Shown here: piece after piece, positions 1 through 21,502 of the stretch
Layout: every line of letters begins with the position of its first letter
How positions within the stretch are numbered: position 1 is the stretch's first letter
Source of the DNA: Escherichia coli
GTDB lineage: Bacteria > Pseudomonadota > Gammaproteobacteria > Enterobacterales > Enterobacteriaceae
Assembly (NCBI RefSeq): GCF_001677475.2
Contig: NZ_CP015229.1
Length of the DNA: 64,000 nucleotides
Strand: one strand, 5' to 3'
Notes under the pieces: generated by a model
The model's database searches: none
Told to the model about the DNA's origin: nothing
The model's input: the letters and a program-made list of their open reading frames with translations, nothing else
Made by a program: the position numbers and the translations under genes

Positions 1-665
1 CCATTTTTATAAGAATAAAACAACGATATTTAAGAGTGCTGGCAGCGGAGAAAAGGGTTAATACAGTCATTTAAGATTACTTCAGCTTTTCCTGTGGTGA
101 AAAATGAGAGGAATTGTAGCGCAATCTGTAAAAACAATTTCTCTTAACTAATAAAAAATCGCTAATAATCATTGTGTTAGATTGATTTGTTGCATAATAA
201 TAACAATATTATTAAAATCATTACAATCTTTAATTTAGAATAACATTTTTATGAAGGCCAGAGTACGTTAAGGGATGATGTATAGCGGTGATTGCTATTA
301 GATGGGAATGCAACCTTGTAAAACCGTTTTGCCCTTCTTTCTCCCTTTCAACGATAAGCCAGACATAATGTGGCTGCTTAAGCCAATTGTCGCAAAGCCA
401 AAGATCTCTCTATATAGCTAACCTCACGGTTAATCCGATTTCAGTATTACCGTGAGCAAGAACTATTTCCTTTTATATAACTCTTAAGGGTTACAAGCGT
501 GAATGCAAATGGTAATATAATGAAATGGTGCCTGCCCGTAATGACCATAACGAATCTACCCCGACGTAAAAGATATAGAGAATAAGATGCAGTAATGCTG
601 ATGCTTTGTTAATCAAATAACAAGATTTAAATTAATCGTAACTCATCAACGTTGTTGTTTTATTC

Positions 666-716
666 GGATGTCTGAAATGATGTTGTACAGAAAACTACAT
701 ATCATTTCAGACATCC
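666..716. repeat. Perfect 16-bp inverted repeat (ggatgtctgaaatgat / atcatttcagacatcc) with 19-nt spacer in AT-rich leader upstream of tpsA
   Basis: Read directly from sequence; arms at 666-681 and 701-716; a T7 run follows at 728-734. Confidence 0.6.
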
Positions 717-754
717 TCTAAATTGGATTTTTTTCACCCAAGGAGGAAGGAGGG

Positions 755-761
755 GGGGACT
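755..761. repeat. G7 homopolymeric tract within a purine-rich aaggaggaaggaggggggg motif
   Basis: Seen in sequence at 755-761; homopolymer of this length is a possible slipped-strand site. Confidence 0.5.
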
Positions 762-979
762 TTTAAATTATTGTGTTTTAGTAAGTTAGGTACTTCGCCG
801 TTCGATGAAAAAACAATAACTCTTAGTTGTTTTTTTGAGTCCTTATTTCAGCTTATTTTCCGTGATTTTTTATTGCGCCAGGTGATAGGATTTGCCGCAA
901 TCATTTTTGCTGATATTCCGTGAGTCATCAAAAGTGATCTGCATGTCCAAAATGAATAGCATCAATAAGGAAAACGTTA

Positions 980-17986: not shown

Positions 17987-19371
17987 AACGTGCGCTGAAG
18001 ATCTCTTCGTTGCTGTGTGTTGTGCTGCCGTTGACGGTACAGGCGGATTGCCTGTCAGGTGACGAGGTGGCACAAAACAGCGATGTGACGCTTTACGAGC
18101 AGGTGTCTTATGTCAATAAACAGGCTTCGGCCTGGCAGATTGCAGGCAAAAATCCCTACACACGTCACAACGGTTATCAGGAGGCGGGGATTGGCATCAA
18201 TAGTGGTTGTTCAATAATCGACAATACGCTGGACCTTAAGCTCAATCTGTATGGAATAAACGAATATGCGCTTAAACCCGCAGGGAAATTCGAAACGGAT
18301 GATAGCCGCACGCGTGCGTTAATTAACCGCCTCAGTCTGGTCTATAGCGCCTCGGACAGCGTTCAATTTGAAGCAGGCAAATTTGCCGCGCCGTCAGGAA
18401 TGTTCTTTTTGCGTTCGCCTTCTGATTTGCAAACGCATTATTACACCGGATTCCAGTCGACGCGTTTGCACGATCCCAAAATGACATCGGCGTATCAGGC
18501 GTCATCGTGGGGAGCAAAAATGAGCGTGGATACACGCGATTATGCGTTTTCAGCGAGCGTCATACCGAAGTTAGCCACCATCGACAAACGCTATGTGACG
18601 TCTGGCAACTGGTCTGCTAATCAGCAGGGAAACAGCGACGAAGCCTATCTGCTGAGCTACAGCGATCATCGCTTTGGTGAGCACACGCCGACAGTCAATG
18701 TGCGGCTCGGACCCTCGCCGTCACTCGCGCTGTCTGACAGTTATCACTACACCCCGCAGCTTACGCTGAATGTCGACGCAGCCTACCACCGCTCCCAGCA
18801 ATGGCGGCATCTTTCCCACCGTGAGACGGCGCAGGTCGAGGAATATCAGTTTCCGGATTCGCTCTATGAAACGAAAGACGAAAGCGGCGTGGAGCTGGCG
18901 CTGGGTGGGCAGTACACCAGCGATAATTTCAGCGTGTTTGGCGTTGAGTATTACTTTCAGAGTGAGGGTTATTCGCGCGCTGAACAGCGTCAGCAGCGCG
19001 AGTTAATTGACTTCCTCAATACCACAACCGGCTATGCGCCACTGGATCAGGCATTTGATTCTTACAAATACCTGATGGCTTCAGAAATCAGCAATACCGC
19101 CAATCAGGGGATGCTGCAGGGTAAGCACTATCTGAACGCCTGGGCCAGTCTGCCGCTGGCGGGAGAGTCGACGCTGCAGCCTTCGCTGGTGGTCAATCTC
19201 ATTGATGGCAGCACGTTGCTGGGCCTGCATTATTCCACGCCGCTCAGCGCTATCAGTAACCAGCTTGAAGCCTATGCCGGTGGCTATAGCGCGCTGGGAA
19301 GTCGGTATTCTGAATTTGCGCTTTTTGGCGACACGTTAGGCCTTTATTTGGGCTTTAAATACTATCTATAA
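17983..19371 (+). CDS. Putative outer-membrane protein (signal peptide, aromatic-rich C-terminus)
   Basis: 462-aa ORF; ATGA overlap with upstream gene; signal peptide LLCVVLPLTVQA; ends LGFKYYL. Confidence 0.5.
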   Translation: MKRALKISSLLCVVLPLTVQADCLSGDEVAQNSDVTLYEQVSYVNKQASAWQIAGKNPYTRHNGYQEAGIGINSGCSIIDNTLDLKLNLYGINEYALKPAGKFETDDSRTRALINRLSLVYSASDSVQFEAGKFAAPSGMFFLRSPSDLQTHYYTGFQSTRLHDPKMTSAYQASSWGAKMSVDTRDYAFSASVIPKLATIDKRYVTSGNWSANQQGNSDEAYLLSYSDHRFGEHTPTVNVRLGPSPSLALSDSYHYTPQLTLNVDAAYHRSQQWRHLSHRETAQVEEYQFPDSLYETKDESGVELALGGQYTSDNFSVFGVEYYFQSEGYSRAEQRQQRELIDFLNTTTGYAPLDQAFDSYKYLMASEISNTANQGMLQGKHYLNAWASLPLAGESTLQPSLVVNLIDGSTLLGLHYSTPLSAISNQLEAYAGGYSALGSRYSEFALFGDTLGLYLGFKYYL

Positions 19372-19381
19372 GGATAAAGAG

Positions 19382-20326
19382 ATGATGAATAATGCTTCAC
19401 AACCGACAGTACTGCTTTTTGCCGGTCAGGGTAATCCGGTTATTGGTATGGGCAGCGATCTTTGGGATCTCAACGCCAGTACAAAACATATCTGGGATTG
19501 TGCCAGCGATATTTCCGGGCTGAACCTGCGTCGCCTGTGTCAGAAAGGGCCGATGAATCGCCTTATTCAAACGACGGTACAACAACTGGCGGTGACCGCA
19601 ATTAATGTAACGCTCTATACCCTGTGCCGCGAGCGTCTTGAGAATTTAACGGTTGTGGGCTCCTGCGGACACAGCGTTGGTGAATACAGTGCGCTCTACG
19701 CCGCTGGAGCTCTTTCTCTTGAGACGCTATTTGGCATGATTCACTTCAGAGCCAGCCTGATGCATGACGAAAGCCAGAGAAATAAAGGCGCAATGCTGGC
19801 GGTTAAAGGCATCAACCGCGAACAACTGCAGACGATGATTACGGAATCAGGCATTGCGCTGGATATTAGCTGTGATAACACGCCGCGCCAGCAGGTTATT
19901 GGGGGAACGCAGGCTGCGTTGAATGAATTTGCCACGCTGCTGATGTCCGCTGGATACGAACCGGTTAAACTCGGTGTGAGCGGTGCCTGGCACACGCGTT
20001 TGATGGAAGACGGCGTTCAGGCAATGCGCGATTATCTTGCCGGACTGGATATCGCTTCGCCAGAGCATCAGGTTCTGATGAACGTAACAGCAAAAAGCGA
20101 GGTCGCTCCGTCAATTATCAAAGAAAATCTCTCATTACACTTAACTCATACGGTGAAATGGACTGAATCTCTCGATACATTTCTGAATATGCCAACCCCG
20201 GTAGCTTTCCTTGAAATAAGTAATAAGCCCTATTTGGGGAATATGTTAAATGATTTTGCTGGCGTGGATCAGCAACGAGTTATGCATTGTCGTAAAGCAT
20301 TTAGTGATGCAAAGGTATTCAAATGA
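19382..20326 (+). CDS. FabD-like acyl-CoA:ACP transacylase (malonyl transferase family)
   Basis: 314 aa; [14 protein letters not shown] active-site Ser motif, LFAGQGNP, conserved His in [10 protein letters not shown]. Confidence 0.8.
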
Positions 20327-21309
20327 TTCCTGATTATTTAACTTTTATTCGCTTTCAGGATAAACGAAATCTGATATACATTTATGCTATTGGACTTATT
20401 CTGATAGGCTTTTATTGGAAAAATGCAGGGTTTACTTTTCCATCAGAGGATATTGGTGTCGTTAGTGGGATTCTGGCCCTGGTGCTGTATAATTTTATTT
20501 TTGATCTCAAGGCGTACTGGGCTTATAAATGCGTCACGAAGAATATCGATTTTTCGTGGTTTAAGAAAAAGCAGAACCACAAAATAGAATTATTTCTTAC
20601 ACAACCTCTGGTGGCAGGATTTCTGTCGTTAATCATGTTGAGTGCAATGAGTTGGGGGCTATACCAGCTTCTACCCTCGTTATATGCGCTGTTCCTGATT
20701 TCGTTACTTGGGCTGTTGGTCATCTTTCTGCTGTTTCGGATGATCCGCACCAGTTATGTCAAGCAGGTCGCTATTTCAGTAGCGAAAAAAGTAAAATATA
20801 AAAGTCTGACTCGCTATGTGCTGCTTTCGGTGTGCATCTCAACGGTTGTTAACCTGCTTACTATCAGCCCGTTGCGTAACAGTGATTCTTTTGTGACAGA
20901 GGGGCAGTGGTTAACGTTTAAATCGATAATTGCATTGCTCATTCTTTGTGGCGTAGTGTTGGCGATTAATCTGTTTTTTCTGCGCTTCTCCAAGCGGTAC
21001 GCTTTTCTGGGTAGGCTTTTTTTGCAGGAAATCGATCTGTTTTTCTCCAGTGAAAATGCGTTGTCGACCTTTTTTGCCAAGCCGCTTTGGCTTCGGTTAT
21101 TCATATTGCTGGTTATTGAAGTGATGTGGATTACGCTGGTGTCGGTATTGGCAACGCTTGTGGAATGGCGGATTTGGTTTGAAGCCTATTTTTTACTCTG
21201 CTATGTACCATGCTTAATTTACTATTTTTTCCATTGTCGATGCCTCTGGCATAACGATTTTATGATGGCATGTGACATGTATTTCCGTTGGGGGCATTTT
21301 AATAAGTGA
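20323..21309 (+). CDS. Polytopic inner-membrane protein of unknown function (Phe/Leu-rich, AT-rich coding sequence)
   Basis: 328-aa ORF with about 8 hydrophobic segments; ATGA overlap with FabD-like gene. Confidence 0.55.
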
Positions 21310-21502
21310 GGAAGTTACAGGAAGTGACCAGATAACGCATATATGTTCTGTACTCTCTTGCGCATTTTGATTGTTGACTGAGCAATCAGACAGTTGATGT
21401 GCACGATTTCCCCTCGCCCTAACAGACGTGGGCGGGGGGGACCCAGTGTGTGCAATATACGAAAAAAAAGCCCATACTTTCGTACGAGCTCTTCTTTAAA
21501 GA

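Follow-up and report, generated by a model that had tools for sequence, protein, structure and literature searches.

The question raised by this locus is how a large set of accessory genes came to lie beside a tRNA gene, and what these genes may do. The window, which is the whole stretch of 64,000 nucleotides of Escherichia coli DNA analysed here, contains at its left side a segment that the first-pass annotation had described as accessory and as abutting the 3' end of a tRNA-Ser gene. The features found up to the end of this tRNA gene (1-21590) are the following.

1..979, plus strand: AT-rich untranslated leader upstream of otpA (34% GC), part of an intergenic region of ~1.39 kb that starts before the window
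980..4792, plus strand: otpA (tpsA), two-partner secretion (TPS) exoprotein of 1270 aa (NCBIfam TIGR01901, TIGR01731)
4881..6500, plus strand: otpB (tpsB), ShlB/FhaC-family outer-membrane transporter of 539 aa (RefSeq names; Pfam POTRA_2, POTRA_3 and ShlB on orthologues)
6516-6884, plus strand: acpS (NCBIfam; Pfam on orthologues)
6898-7659, plus strand: FabG-like ketoreductase gene (NCBIfam; Pfam on orthologues)
7663-8211, plus strand: FabZ/ApeI-like dehydratase gene (NCBIfam; Pfam on orthologues)
8233-8514, plus strand: acyl carrier protein (ACP) gene (NCBIfam; Pfam on orthologues)
8550..9710, plus strand: GcvT-family (aminomethyltransferase fold) protein of 386 aa (Pfam GCV_T and GCV_T_C on orthologues)
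9784-12342, plus strand: protein of 852 aa with two fused ketosynthase (KS) domains (NCBIfam FabF-type in two stretches; Pfam ketoacyl-synt twice)
12347-13570, plus strand: third ketosynthase-like protein, 407 aa (NCBIfam FabF-type; Pfam)
13567..14520, plus strand: conserved protein of 317 aa, cytoplasmic by sequence, with invariant cysteines (alignment)
14531-15238, plus strand: LolD-like ABC ATPase (NCBIfam)
15222-15878, plus strand: exported protein of 218 aa (signal peptide prediction)
15879-17189, plus strand: LolC/E- or MacB/FtsX-type permease (NCBIfam; Pfam MacB_PCD and FtsX; TM segments)
17198-17986, plus strand: LolA-like (TP_0789-like) periplasmic protein (Pfam PF17131 on orthologues; signal peptide)
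17983-19371, plus strand: exported protein of 462 aa, predicted to be beta-strand-rich (signal peptide; AF2 model mostly strands, with a mean pLDDT of only 50)
19382..20326, plus strand: FabD-like ACP S-malonyltransferase, complete counterpart of the ymdE pseudogene in K-12 (NCBIfam TIGR00128)
20323..21309, plus strand: ycdU, multi-pass inner-membrane protein; closes the cluster and overlaps the FabD-like gene by 4 nt
21310..21441, no strand: non-coding right-end tail of the block, missing in the ancestral empty allele, ~94% identical among carriers
21442..21502, minus strand: native serX downstream sequence, a stem then a T8 run, present in every allele and the first sequence in common with block-less genomes
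21503..21590, minus strand: serX, tRNA-Ser(GGA), intact and unoccupied (21503-21516 is TGGCGGTGAGGGGG)

The tRNA-Ser gene reported beside the segment is therefore serX. The 17 genes from otpA to ycdU are co-directional, with gaps of at most 88 nt and four overlaps. The leader contains a perfect 16-nt inverted repeat (666-681/701-716). OtpA carries a signal peptide and an N-terminal TPS domain. Internally, a 378-aa unit is duplicated in tandem, with 56% identity between the repeats. OtpA shares 98.1% amino-acid identity with the O157 protein. As in type Vb secretion, a TpsA (TIGR01901, E = 8e-22; Pfam TPS on orthologues) is adjacent to a TpsB with the POTRA and ShlB domains. The OtpAB naming follows PMC5422565 and bioRxiv 10.1101/2020.04.13.038984, and the secretion of OtpA/OtpB was demonstrated experimentally by Choi et al. 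in 2007, as cited in PMC5422565. The matches of the GcvT-family protein to NCBIfam NF001567 and TIGR00528 were both under the cut-off, and so were all NCBIfam matches of the synthase genes to named pathways. The 317-aa protein gave no NCBIfam, Pfam or PDB match, and its AF2 model was unusable. The 462-aa protein is a candidate outer-membrane component.

Window 1-21441 is the right 21.4 kb, or right two-thirds, of a chromosomal block of 33.2 kb. This block is O-island 47 (OI-47), as defined against K-12, together with ymdE and ycdU; as an island, the segment is already known and catalogued. The O157:H7 locus is colinear with window 1-21516 at ~97.7% nucleotide identity. Two carrier loci, L001 and L007, were read across the whole block; they are colinear with the window, and the proteins are 97-100% identical to their O157 counterparts. 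The position is that of OI-47, between dgcT (ycdT) and ymdE/ycdU, with ~31.7 kb absent from K-12. The part of L001 that K-12 lacks (2232-33977) amounts to 31,746 bp, and the published OI-47 is 31,727 bp, z1528-z1556 (PMC8565820). The gene content and order also agree, with an EAL protein (VmpA), GrvA/FidL, a fimbrial operon, otpAB and fatty-acid-synthesis-like genes. The block carries the OtpA/OtpB pair along with the fatty-acid/polyketide-like cluster. The best match to the window among 5,426 complete genomes was 98.5%, and the window is from a non-O157 lineage.

The segment is indeed accessory and not core in all lineages, as window 1-21700 was covered to at least 80% in only 378 of the 5,426 complete E. 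coli genomes (7%). The mosaic composition claimed for it is also seen in a mild form. The GC content is 0.479 in the block versus 0.502 in the rest of the window, and 34% in the leader. GC3 is low (0.36-0.48) in otpB, acpS, the ACP gene, the ABC ATPase gene and ycdU and higher (0.57-0.60) in the ketosynthase genes; the span per gene in the block is 0.36-0.60, and the core genes of the window have a mean of 0.578 (sd 0.042). Variable presence and atypical composition thus occur together, as in a genomic island.

The right junction bears on whether the tRNA gene served as the integration site. Compared with the ancestral empty allele, the block ends at 21441|21442, and the tRNA 3' end at 21503 follows only after 61 bp of native sequence that belongs downstream of serX; in comparison with K-12, the segment ends at 19982|19983. 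The segment therefore does not abut the tRNA. The K-12-like gene order reported from the tRNA onward was confirmed, and it begins already at 21442 and runs to 64000 with 98.4-98.6% identity. The 61 bp were read as the serX terminator by sequence inspection, because a consensus terminator scan made no call at 21442..21502.

Positions 21503-21516 (TGGCGGTGAGGGGG) form the 14-bp att core of integrase-carrying serX islands in other strains. The O157 match to the window stops at 21516. Genuine serX islands insert exactly at 21503-21516, between the block and the tRNA, and bring an integrase: OI-48 in O157, PAI-serX in CFT073 and a CP4-like island in strain F138. A 14-bp att core, perfect 14-bp direct repeats and precise excision have been reported for serX islands (PMC3064760). 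A 20-mer of the serX 3' end, with as many as 3 mismatches tolerated, was searched across the window and across L001, which includes the left end of the block, and only one match was obtained. No second copy is present in the window, nor in L001 over the next 14 kb upstream, which agrees with the att repeat not having been seen before. The block junction sequences had no repeat in common in the comparison. The annotation of the full 33.2-kb block shows neither an integrase nor a transposase in L001 or L007. The first-pass annotation was right that none is in view, and its suggestion of mobility genes beyond the window is contradicted. The integrase of L007 belongs to a separate island inserted between ycdU and serX. 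Three hallmarks of a tRNA island were not found: a junction inside the tRNA 3' end (the block stops at 21441), flanking direct repeats of that end, and a tyrosine recombinase gene at one end. Integration at the tRNA 3' end, as implied earlier, is not borne out.

The direction of change was addressed with an allele census over the 5,426 complete genomes. The intact block is present in 378-388 genomes, the IS3 remnant arrangement in 2,195 (~40%), dgcT followed directly by serX-downstream sequence in 1,398 (26%), and phoH-DUF2726-serX in 1,044. The dgcT-EAL left junction is common to 388 genomes and the colinear right part is found in 378, and position and junctions agree between O157 644-PT8 and O169:H41, the two carriers whose block was read completely. 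The empty allele consists of dgcT, 104 bp and serX, and dgcT followed directly by serX occurs in divergent Escherichia lineages and in CFT073-type genomes. Its DgcT C-terminus, KEAEILINRKDDE, recurs in orthologues of 89, 87, 86 and 76% identity; these 14 codons are conserved down to 76% identity, and a related motif is found at 47%. The C-terminus of the occupied allele, DVVNFCESP, is found only with the block or the IS3 remnant. The same dgcT-to-serX junction is present at ~90% and ~80% dgcT nucleotide identity (L029 and L030, one genome per lineage). The empty state appears to be ancestral, because its DgcT C-terminus is shared with more distant orthologues. The 33.2-kb block stands in place of 85 bp of the empty allele. 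E. coli carriers differ by 1-3% among themselves and from the window, as in core DNA, and segment identity is 97.1-99.5% in block genes versus 98.1-98.9% in the adjacent core; the block is about as diverged as its flanks. The earlier idea of an old, stabilised insertion is supported by this ancestral empty allele and core-like divergence.

The first-pass annotation had stated that K-12 carries ycdU at this place instead of the cluster. On the contrary, the window itself contains ycdU (20323-21309), where it closes the cluster. The difference between K-12 and the window ends inside the malonyltransferase gene, not at the tRNA. IS3 lies in place of 31.7 kb in K-12, and the pseudogene ymdE, which keeps the last 344 nt of the malonyltransferase gene, and ycdU (99.1% amino-acid identity to that of the window) remain. 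The IS3 element is 1258 bp and is flanked by ATT(T) at one end and by GTG or GGC at the opposite end; since these triplets are unlike, there is no target duplication. The IS3 deletion breakpoints in other lineages are 19797|19798 and 19982|19983. The left IS3 junction is identical in two genome classes, the right junctions are 185 bp apart, and ymdE has lost its 5' 600 or 415 nt. In another lineage, an IS1 deletion extends from dgcT into ycdU (breakpoint 20953|20954). The K-12 allele has the IS at the junction, the truncated flanking gene and the missing target-site duplication of an IS-mediated adjacent deletion. K-12 shows the outcome of an IS3-associated deletion, with ycdU left over from the cluster. 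As a result of being orphaned, ycdU appears in the K-12 annotation as an isolated gene whose function is unknown.

The explanation that we consider probable as a whole is an OI-47 block of old, non-site-specific gain, inherited vertically and eroded by IS elements, with a 17-gene module of inferred lipid function. An ancestor of several E. coli lineages would have gained the block via recombination without site specificity; the junctions are observed and this mechanism is deduced. The 85 bp between dgcT codon ~441 and the sequence just downstream of serX would have been swapped for the block. Since this replacement starts inside dgcT, the block supplies the last 11 dgcT codons on the left and stops 61 bp short of the tRNA on the right. 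No IS, repeat or recombinase trace of the insertion mechanism was found at the block ends. Vertical inheritance would have followed. Erosion is seen directly, as IS3 lies next to dgcT in place of 31.6-31.7 kb in lineages including K-12, with ymdE' and ycdU left. Integrase-carrying islands insert independently at the neighbouring serX att site.

Other histories were weighed against the same data. A degenerate tRNA-targeted island, integrated at the serX 3' end with its integrase later lost or outside the window, is quite unlikely. It would suit an accessory, compositionally mosaic block ending only 61 bp from a proven integration hotspot (PMC3064760). However, the 33.2-kb block contains no integrase, the serX 3' end is present once in the window and L001, and the geometry is wrong: serX islands sit between the tRNA and the displaced attL-bearing downstream sequence, as in L007, whereas the block is beyond that sequence. 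Moreover, the junction on the left of the block falls within the coding sequence of dgcT.

It is also unlikely that E. coli or Escherichia had the block as ancestral core DNA and that the block-less genomes, including those with the dgcT-serX allele, arose by repeated deletion. Several independent deletions can be demonstrated (IS3 at two breakpoints, and IS1), the divergence is core-like, and the block or a remnant is found in 47% of genomes. Yet a deletion cannot create conserved coding sequence, and for this reason the 14 dgcT codons of the empty allele contradict such an origin, as does the same empty junction at ~80% nucleotide identity. The cluster was not found in representatives of other Escherichia species, a weak negative because only six exact 8-residue peptide words were used for the scan. 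A recent horizontal gain, with a plasmid copy of the module between IS6 elements as one conceivable source for this strain, is very improbable. Such a copy exists on an Enterobacter IncFII plasmid, and some genes of the block have low GC3, but the nearest non-Escherichia homologues are only 44-86% identical at the protein level (81% for the plasmid KS fusion). The core-like divergence of E. coli carriers, the shared position and junctions and the absence of an IS flanking the block in E. coli also oppose it.

Beyond E. coli, Enterobacter, Kosakonia and Leclercia carry the same 17 genes in unchanged order, within chromosomal surroundings of three different kinds. Silvania, Klebsiella and one further lineage keep synteny for ten of the genes, from the ketosynthase fusion through ycdU. 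Altogether, the unit recurs in six other genera. In every module locus, ycdU is terminal, and a scan of six loci (L008-L013) turned up no tRNA gene. The E. bugandensis IncFII plasmid pEC105227L carries the module by itself, bracketed by two IS6-family copies of 811 bp that are identical to each other. Judged by protein families, the module contains a private type-II fatty-acid/polyketide-like synthase set beside the OtpA/OtpB pair. The synthase set comprises AcpS, ACP, FabD-like, FabG-like and FabZ-like proteins and three ketosynthase domains, and it is joined by the GcvT-fold enzyme. The remaining genes encode the LolCDE-like ABC transporter, the LolA-like periplasmic carrier, YcdU in the membrane and two more exported proteins. 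The module would make a specialised acyl or polyketide lipid and deliver it to the outer membrane along a Lol-like path, functionally associated with the secreted OtpA. The coupling of OtpAB to the lipid genes is suggested by conserved synteny. According to bioRxiv 10.1101/2020.04.13.038984, Choi et al. instead suggested that OtpAB is linked to the fimbrial operon that lies upstream, and this operon is also syntenic in Kosakonia. We tentatively propose that otpA-ycdU could be one functional system of an undescribed kind, in which a two-partner-secreted beta-helical protein, a private lipid/polyketide synthase and Lol-like export form a unit spread among genera; the ycdU and ymdE of K-12 would be non-functional relics of it. 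OtpA may be acylated by, or anchored through, the synthase product, or OtpA and the lipid may be jointly active at the cell surface. The notion of a mobile unit draws on the IS6 bracketing on one plasmid.

These results correct a tempting misreading, as closeness to a tRNA alone does not mean integrase-mediated integration. They set the polarity of a four-allele hotspot beside serX, with one old gain and then IS-associated losses, and they explain ymdE and ycdU of K-12 as the stub of a 17-gene operon. This origin matters wherever ymdE/ycdU are taken for possible fitness genes, for instance in the study on bovine mastitis (PMC4951805). The constant linkage of OtpAB to a lipid-synthesis/export cluster gives a testable lead on the function of OtpA, an open question since 2007.

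Among known systems, OI-47 of O157:H7 EDL933/Sakai (z1528-z1556), which includes otpAB (ECs1282-1283), vmpA, grvA and the loc6 fimbriae, shares locus, gene order, identity and K-12-missing size with the block. It differs in that O157 usually has OI-48 inserted at serX, which is unoccupied in the window. Also, OI-47 excludes ymdE' and ycdU because it was defined against K-12, while both are placed here in the same inserted block and operon. The serX/serW islands (the OI-43/OI-48 tellurite-adherence island, SRL-PAI and PAI-CFT073-serX) adjoin the same tRNA, are accessory and measure tens of kilobases. However, they have a P4-family integrase beside attL, 14-bp direct repeats and precise excision, and the block lacks all three and lies outside the att site. 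The IS3 case resembles other IS-mediated adjacent deletions with pseudogene stubs in K-12, with an IS abutting a truncated gene, no duplication and nested breakpoints beside a fixed IS end. It is not different in kind; its notable outcome is the orphaned ycdU. Aryl-polyene (APE), flexirubin and xanthomonadin-type clusters share with the module a type-II FAS-like core of dedicated ACP, ketosynthase/CLF-like, ketoreductase and FabZ/ApeI-like dehydratase proteins, a LolA-like protein and an outer-membrane-directed exporter. No enzyme for aryl-starter supply or activation (ammonia-lyase or chorismate-derived, adenylating) was found among the 17 proteins with NCBIfam/Pfam, and therefore the module is not filed as an APE cluster; glycosyl- and acyltransferases are missing as well. 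In contrast to the MMPL/RND protein of those clusters, its exporter is a LolCDE/MacB-type ABC transporter, and it has in addition the GcvT-fold enzyme, its own AcpS and FabD, a linked TPS pair and YcdU.

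The accessory DNA left of serX is the known O-island 47 (OI-47). By megablast, window 1-21700 was at least 80% present in only 378 of 5,426 complete E. coli genomes, and window 1-21516 matched O157 with 97.7% identity. OI-47 of O157:H7 is a 31,727-bp island (z1528-z1556) with GrvA and VmpA (PMC8565820, PMC4076661), and its OtpA/OtpB pair (ECs1282-1283) is a genuine two-partner secretion system (PMC5422565; bioRxiv 10.1101/2020.04.13.038984). In two annotated carriers, the O169:H41 locus (L001) and the O157 locus of 644-PT8 (L007), the whole block sits between dgcT (ycdT) and serX. 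An EAL phosphodiesterase gene, fidL with a winged-helix regulator gene, an SDR gene and a chaperone-usher fimbrial operon come first, followed by the two-partner secretion pair, a fatty-acid-synthase-like cluster and ycdU. No integrase is annotated in the block of either carrier. The first-pass annotation was therefore right to regard the left-hand DNA as accessory and integrase-free, but its boundaries and its comparison with K-12 did not hold. Its statement that the right side matches K-12 was correct, because colinearity with K-12 extends over 21442-64000, ghrA through the flg genes, with 98.4-98.6% identity. The sole colinearity break right of serX lies at 58514-58607, where about 93 bp stand against about 126 bp in the flgF-flgG intergenic region of K-12.

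Left of serX, 17 co-directional ORFs run from 980 to 21309 with four overlaps and intergenic gaps of at most 88 nt. These ORFs, otpA to ycdU, are called the module here. Rfam at the gathering threshold gave nothing besides the tRNA in window 1-23000. The landmarks are as follows.

1-979, AT-rich leader, 34% GC
20323-21309, ycdU, with its first 4 nt inside the malonyltransferase gene
21442-21521, RtT-unit region (L002 7459-8082 and L006 7549-8293 in two other loci)
21503-21590, minus strand, serX, the single tRNA-Ser(GGA) (ARAGORN, Rfam)

By family assignment, OtpA combines a TPS domain with haemagglutinin-type repeats, and OtpB combines POTRA domains with a ShlB-type barrel. Assigned to the synthase set are AcpS, ACP, FabD, a GcvT-fold protein, a FabG-like reductase, a FabZ/ApeI-like dehydratase, a two-domain ketosynthase fusion and a third ketosynthase-like protein. 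The export set is assigned to a LolD-like ATPase, a LolC/E- or MacB-type permease and a LolA-like (TP_0789-like) protein. About eight membrane segments are predicted in YcdU. Four of the 17 proteins had no family match, and two of the four have signal peptides. Profile searches against PDB sequences gave no match for the conserved 317-aa and 462-aa proteins. Their AlphaFold2 models, built on shallow alignments of 6-7 orthologues, were unusable (mean pLDDT 38 and 50, respectively), and the comparison of the 317-aa protein with the neighbouring ketosynthase-like protein by hhalign was not significant (probability 0.4%). Within OtpA, a 378-aa unit is tandemly duplicated (window 2420-4789; copies 56% identical; DNA spacing 1134 nt). 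TpsA orthologues of Kosakonia and Leclercia, with 887-892 aa, are one unit shorter than those of E. coli and Enterobacter, with 1270-1290 aa. The otpA leader holds a perfect 16-nt inverted repeat at 666-716, GGATGTCTGAAATGAT ... ATCATTTCAGACATCC, with a 19-nt spacer, a possible regulatory hairpin or palindrome for protein binding.

The polarity of the insertion was decided by dgcT, of which two kinds differ over the final 11-14 codons. DgcT ends in ...VVVKEAEILINRKDDE in the empty allele, where dgcT is followed by the serX-downstream sequence, and in ...VVV(R/S)DVVNFCESP in the occupied and IS3-remnant alleles. The empty-allele ending was found again in DgcT orthologues at 89, 87, 86 and 76% identity, with a related motif at 47%. 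The other ending is restricted to sequences with 90% or more identity to E. coli DgcT and a single one at 75%. Conserved coding sequence cannot be produced by a deletion, and so the empty allele is the ancestral one. It is also seen in two divergent Escherichia loci. L029 has the order phoH, pgaDCBA, dgcT, 104 bp, serX, ghrA, with a dgcT about 90% identical at the nucleotide level, and is colinear with CFT073 straight across the dgcT-serX junction. In L030, with a dgcT about 80% identical, the stop codon directly precedes the shared serX-downstream unit. The 45 nt ending dgcT in CFT073 were rejected as deletion evidence; they have no counterpart inside the block, and the orthologues were used instead. 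The gene is unusually polymorphic. In one E. coli-level genome, the dgcT of L029 (7903-9325) shows only about 90% nucleotide identity in comparison with L002 and L028, against 97.6-98.5% for its flanks (phoH-pgaC on the upstream side, serX-ghrA on the downstream side), which suggests an imported or long-maintained divergent allele.

The occupied allele arose when a 33,245-bp block (L001 2187-35431) replaced 85 bp of the empty allele. The junction comparison revealed no repeat common to the two block junctions. In the window, the right junction falls between 21441 and 21442, and the 61 bp that separate it from the tRNA belong to the native downstream region of serX. Carriers are 97.1-99.5% identical to each other over the block genes and 98.1-98.9% over the adjacent core. 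This core-like identity, together with the lack of any genome at least 99% identical to the core of the window, indicates that the gain is old and that the block was inherited vertically. The gain came first and the losses afterwards. The polarity and the exact junctions are added by this analysis. The non-coding tail from ycdU to the junction (21310-21441) is about 94% identical among carriers and K-12, its flanking genes being 98-99% identical, and holds a GC-rich imperfect hairpin, CCCCTCGCCC ... GGGCGGGGGG. A consensus terminator scan gave no terminator in the ycdU-serX interval.

The GC content is 47.9% in the segment and 50.2% elsewhere in the window. In GC3, otpA and the FabG-like, GcvT, ketosynthase and 462-aa protein genes resemble the core (0.57-0.60), and low values (0.36-0.48) are seen in otpB, acpS, ycdU and the ACP and ABC ATPase genes. 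The mosaic composition described earlier is therefore real, with a modest effect, and the pattern fits an old, partly ameliorated acquisition.

Integration at the tRNA 3' end, with mobility genes lying outside the window, had also been proposed. True serX islands do occur. In O157 the window match ends at 21516 and a tyrosine integrase comes after ycdU, in strain F138 a CP4-like island adjoins 21503 exactly, and in CFT073 PAI-serX begins with an integrase. OI-43/48 is flanked on both sides by the 14-bp repeat TGGCGGTGAGGGGG and excises precisely (PMC3064760). In contrast to the true serX islands, the block lies beyond the downstream sequence of serX, a position that does not fit a tRNA-integrated island. 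Since the block has no integrase and a second copy of the tRNA end was found neither in the window nor in L001, tRNA targeting was not supported, and the complete blocks of L001 and L007 leave no hidden mobility genes. Therefore, of the proposed interpretation, the old, stabilised insertion stands, with an ancestral empty allele and block divergence like that of the adjacent core, and the other two parts fall. Direct repeats of the serX 3' end upstream in K-12 were rejected as att sites; they are 181-bp tandem RtT-like units, of which K-12 has three extra copies and the window none. The RtT unit, labelled 'RtT sRNA' in RefSeq, consists of about 104 bp downstream of serX and the last 19 nt of the tRNA. 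Across the loci its extra copies vary from none (window, L001) to two to four (K-12 and others). They can be mistaken for island att sites because each copy opens with a pseudo serX 3' end with one mismatch.

In K-12 the order is dgcT, IS3, the ymdE pseudogene, ycdU, tandem RtT-like units, serX, and ymdE retains the 3' part of the ACP S-malonyltransferase gene. Given this order, ycdU is not an alternative to the cluster, contrary to the first-pass annotation; it lies within the window as the last gene of the module. Homology with K-12 begins at 19983, inside the malonyltransferase gene. A second genome class shares the IS3 and left junction of K-12, and its homology begins 185 bp earlier, at 19798. 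The 1258-bp IS3 has no target-site duplication, because its flanking triplets are unlike. Such a junction marks an IS-associated deletion rather than a simple insertion. The DNA missing from K-12 corresponds to L001 2232-33977 (31,746 bp). In a third lineage, an IS1 deletion extends from within dgcT into ycdU (breakpoint 20954). The shortening of ymdE by IS3, with a 945-bp version in other phylogroups, was reported previously (Goldstone et al., PMC4951805); this analysis adds that the K-12 genes ymdE' and ycdU are what is left of the module's operon. A K-12-type ymdE remnant with ycdU (99% amino-acid identity) was also seen on a 1.6-kb contig (QFQM01000612.1) of a metagenome-assembled genome that bears the label Flavobacterium psychrophilum; the contig is almost certainly contaminating E. 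coli DNA in the bin.

Alleles at the serX interval, counted with junction-spanning queries against 5,426 complete E. coli genomes.
Intact left end (dgcT-EAL junction): 388 genomes
Intact right 21.7 kb: 378 genomes
dgcT-IS3 junction: 2,300 genomes
IS3-ymdE' junction: 2,195 genomes, including 716 with the longer remnant (this K-12 junction count takes in the longer-remnant class as joined pieces; the 716 / ~1,479 split was obtained by subtraction)
ycdU present: 2,607 genomes
dgcT then serX-downstream sequence directly, as in CFT073 and type strain ATCC 11775: 1,398 genomes
phoH-DUF2726-serX, without pga or dgcT: 1,044 genomes

The block or its stub is present in about 47% of genomes. With several alleles counted, the serX-adjacent interval is therefore a multi-allelic hotspot. 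The best matches to the window in this set were 98.7% identical for the core (21700-46000) and 98.5% for the island. None reached 99%, and therefore the lineage of the source strain is absent from the 5,426 genomes.

The module was surveyed by scanning species-representative genomes and looking up the encoding contigs. Enterobacter cloacae, Kosakonia and Leclercia keep all 17 genes in the same order. Synteny of the last ten genes, ketosynthase fusion to ycdU, is seen in three Enterobacter species, Kosakonia, Silvania, Leclercia, Klebsiella oxytoca and one further lineage, with 43-86% amino-acid identity over the six genome loci compared. YcdU, whose homologues are confined to Enterobacterales, is encoded last in every module locus. 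The neighbours vary: wzc with a type I secretion system, fimbriae with an EAL gene, yajR with ubiA, or a TonB-dependent receptor gene. A scan of six genome loci (L008-L013) gave no tRNA. Kosakonia has fimbrial chaperone and subunit genes upstream that are orthologues of those in OI-47 (61-70% identity). The module is also carried by the 322-kb IncFII/MOBF plasmid pEC105227L of E. bugandensis, where two identical 811-bp IS6-family copies in inverted orientation enclose 21,399 bp made up of the leader and 17 genes alone. The module can therefore move as a discrete unit. No paper describing it came up in a literature search that combined two-partner secretion, ACP, ketosynthase and LolA, and the delineation of the module as a 17-gene OtpAB-lipid unit, also IS6-bracketed on a plasmid, is added by this analysis. 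In PLSDB, a ketosynthase-fusion homologue (56% identity) was found in Proteus mirabilis, and therefore the family may extend to Morganellaceae. The PLSDB matches H109, H114 and H115 (E. coli, Proteus mirabilis) are 4.1-4.9 Mb records filed as plasmids and are presumably chromosomes.

The synteny of otpAB with the lipid genes is observed directly, and OtpA and the lipid may be coupled in function. The private ACP may serve to build a dedicated acyl or polyketide lipid, with export by a Lol-like route in association with secreted OtpA. Because the starter-unit enzymes of aryl-polyene-type clusters are absent, the module is not filed under that type, although its architecture is like that of these envelope-lipid clusters.
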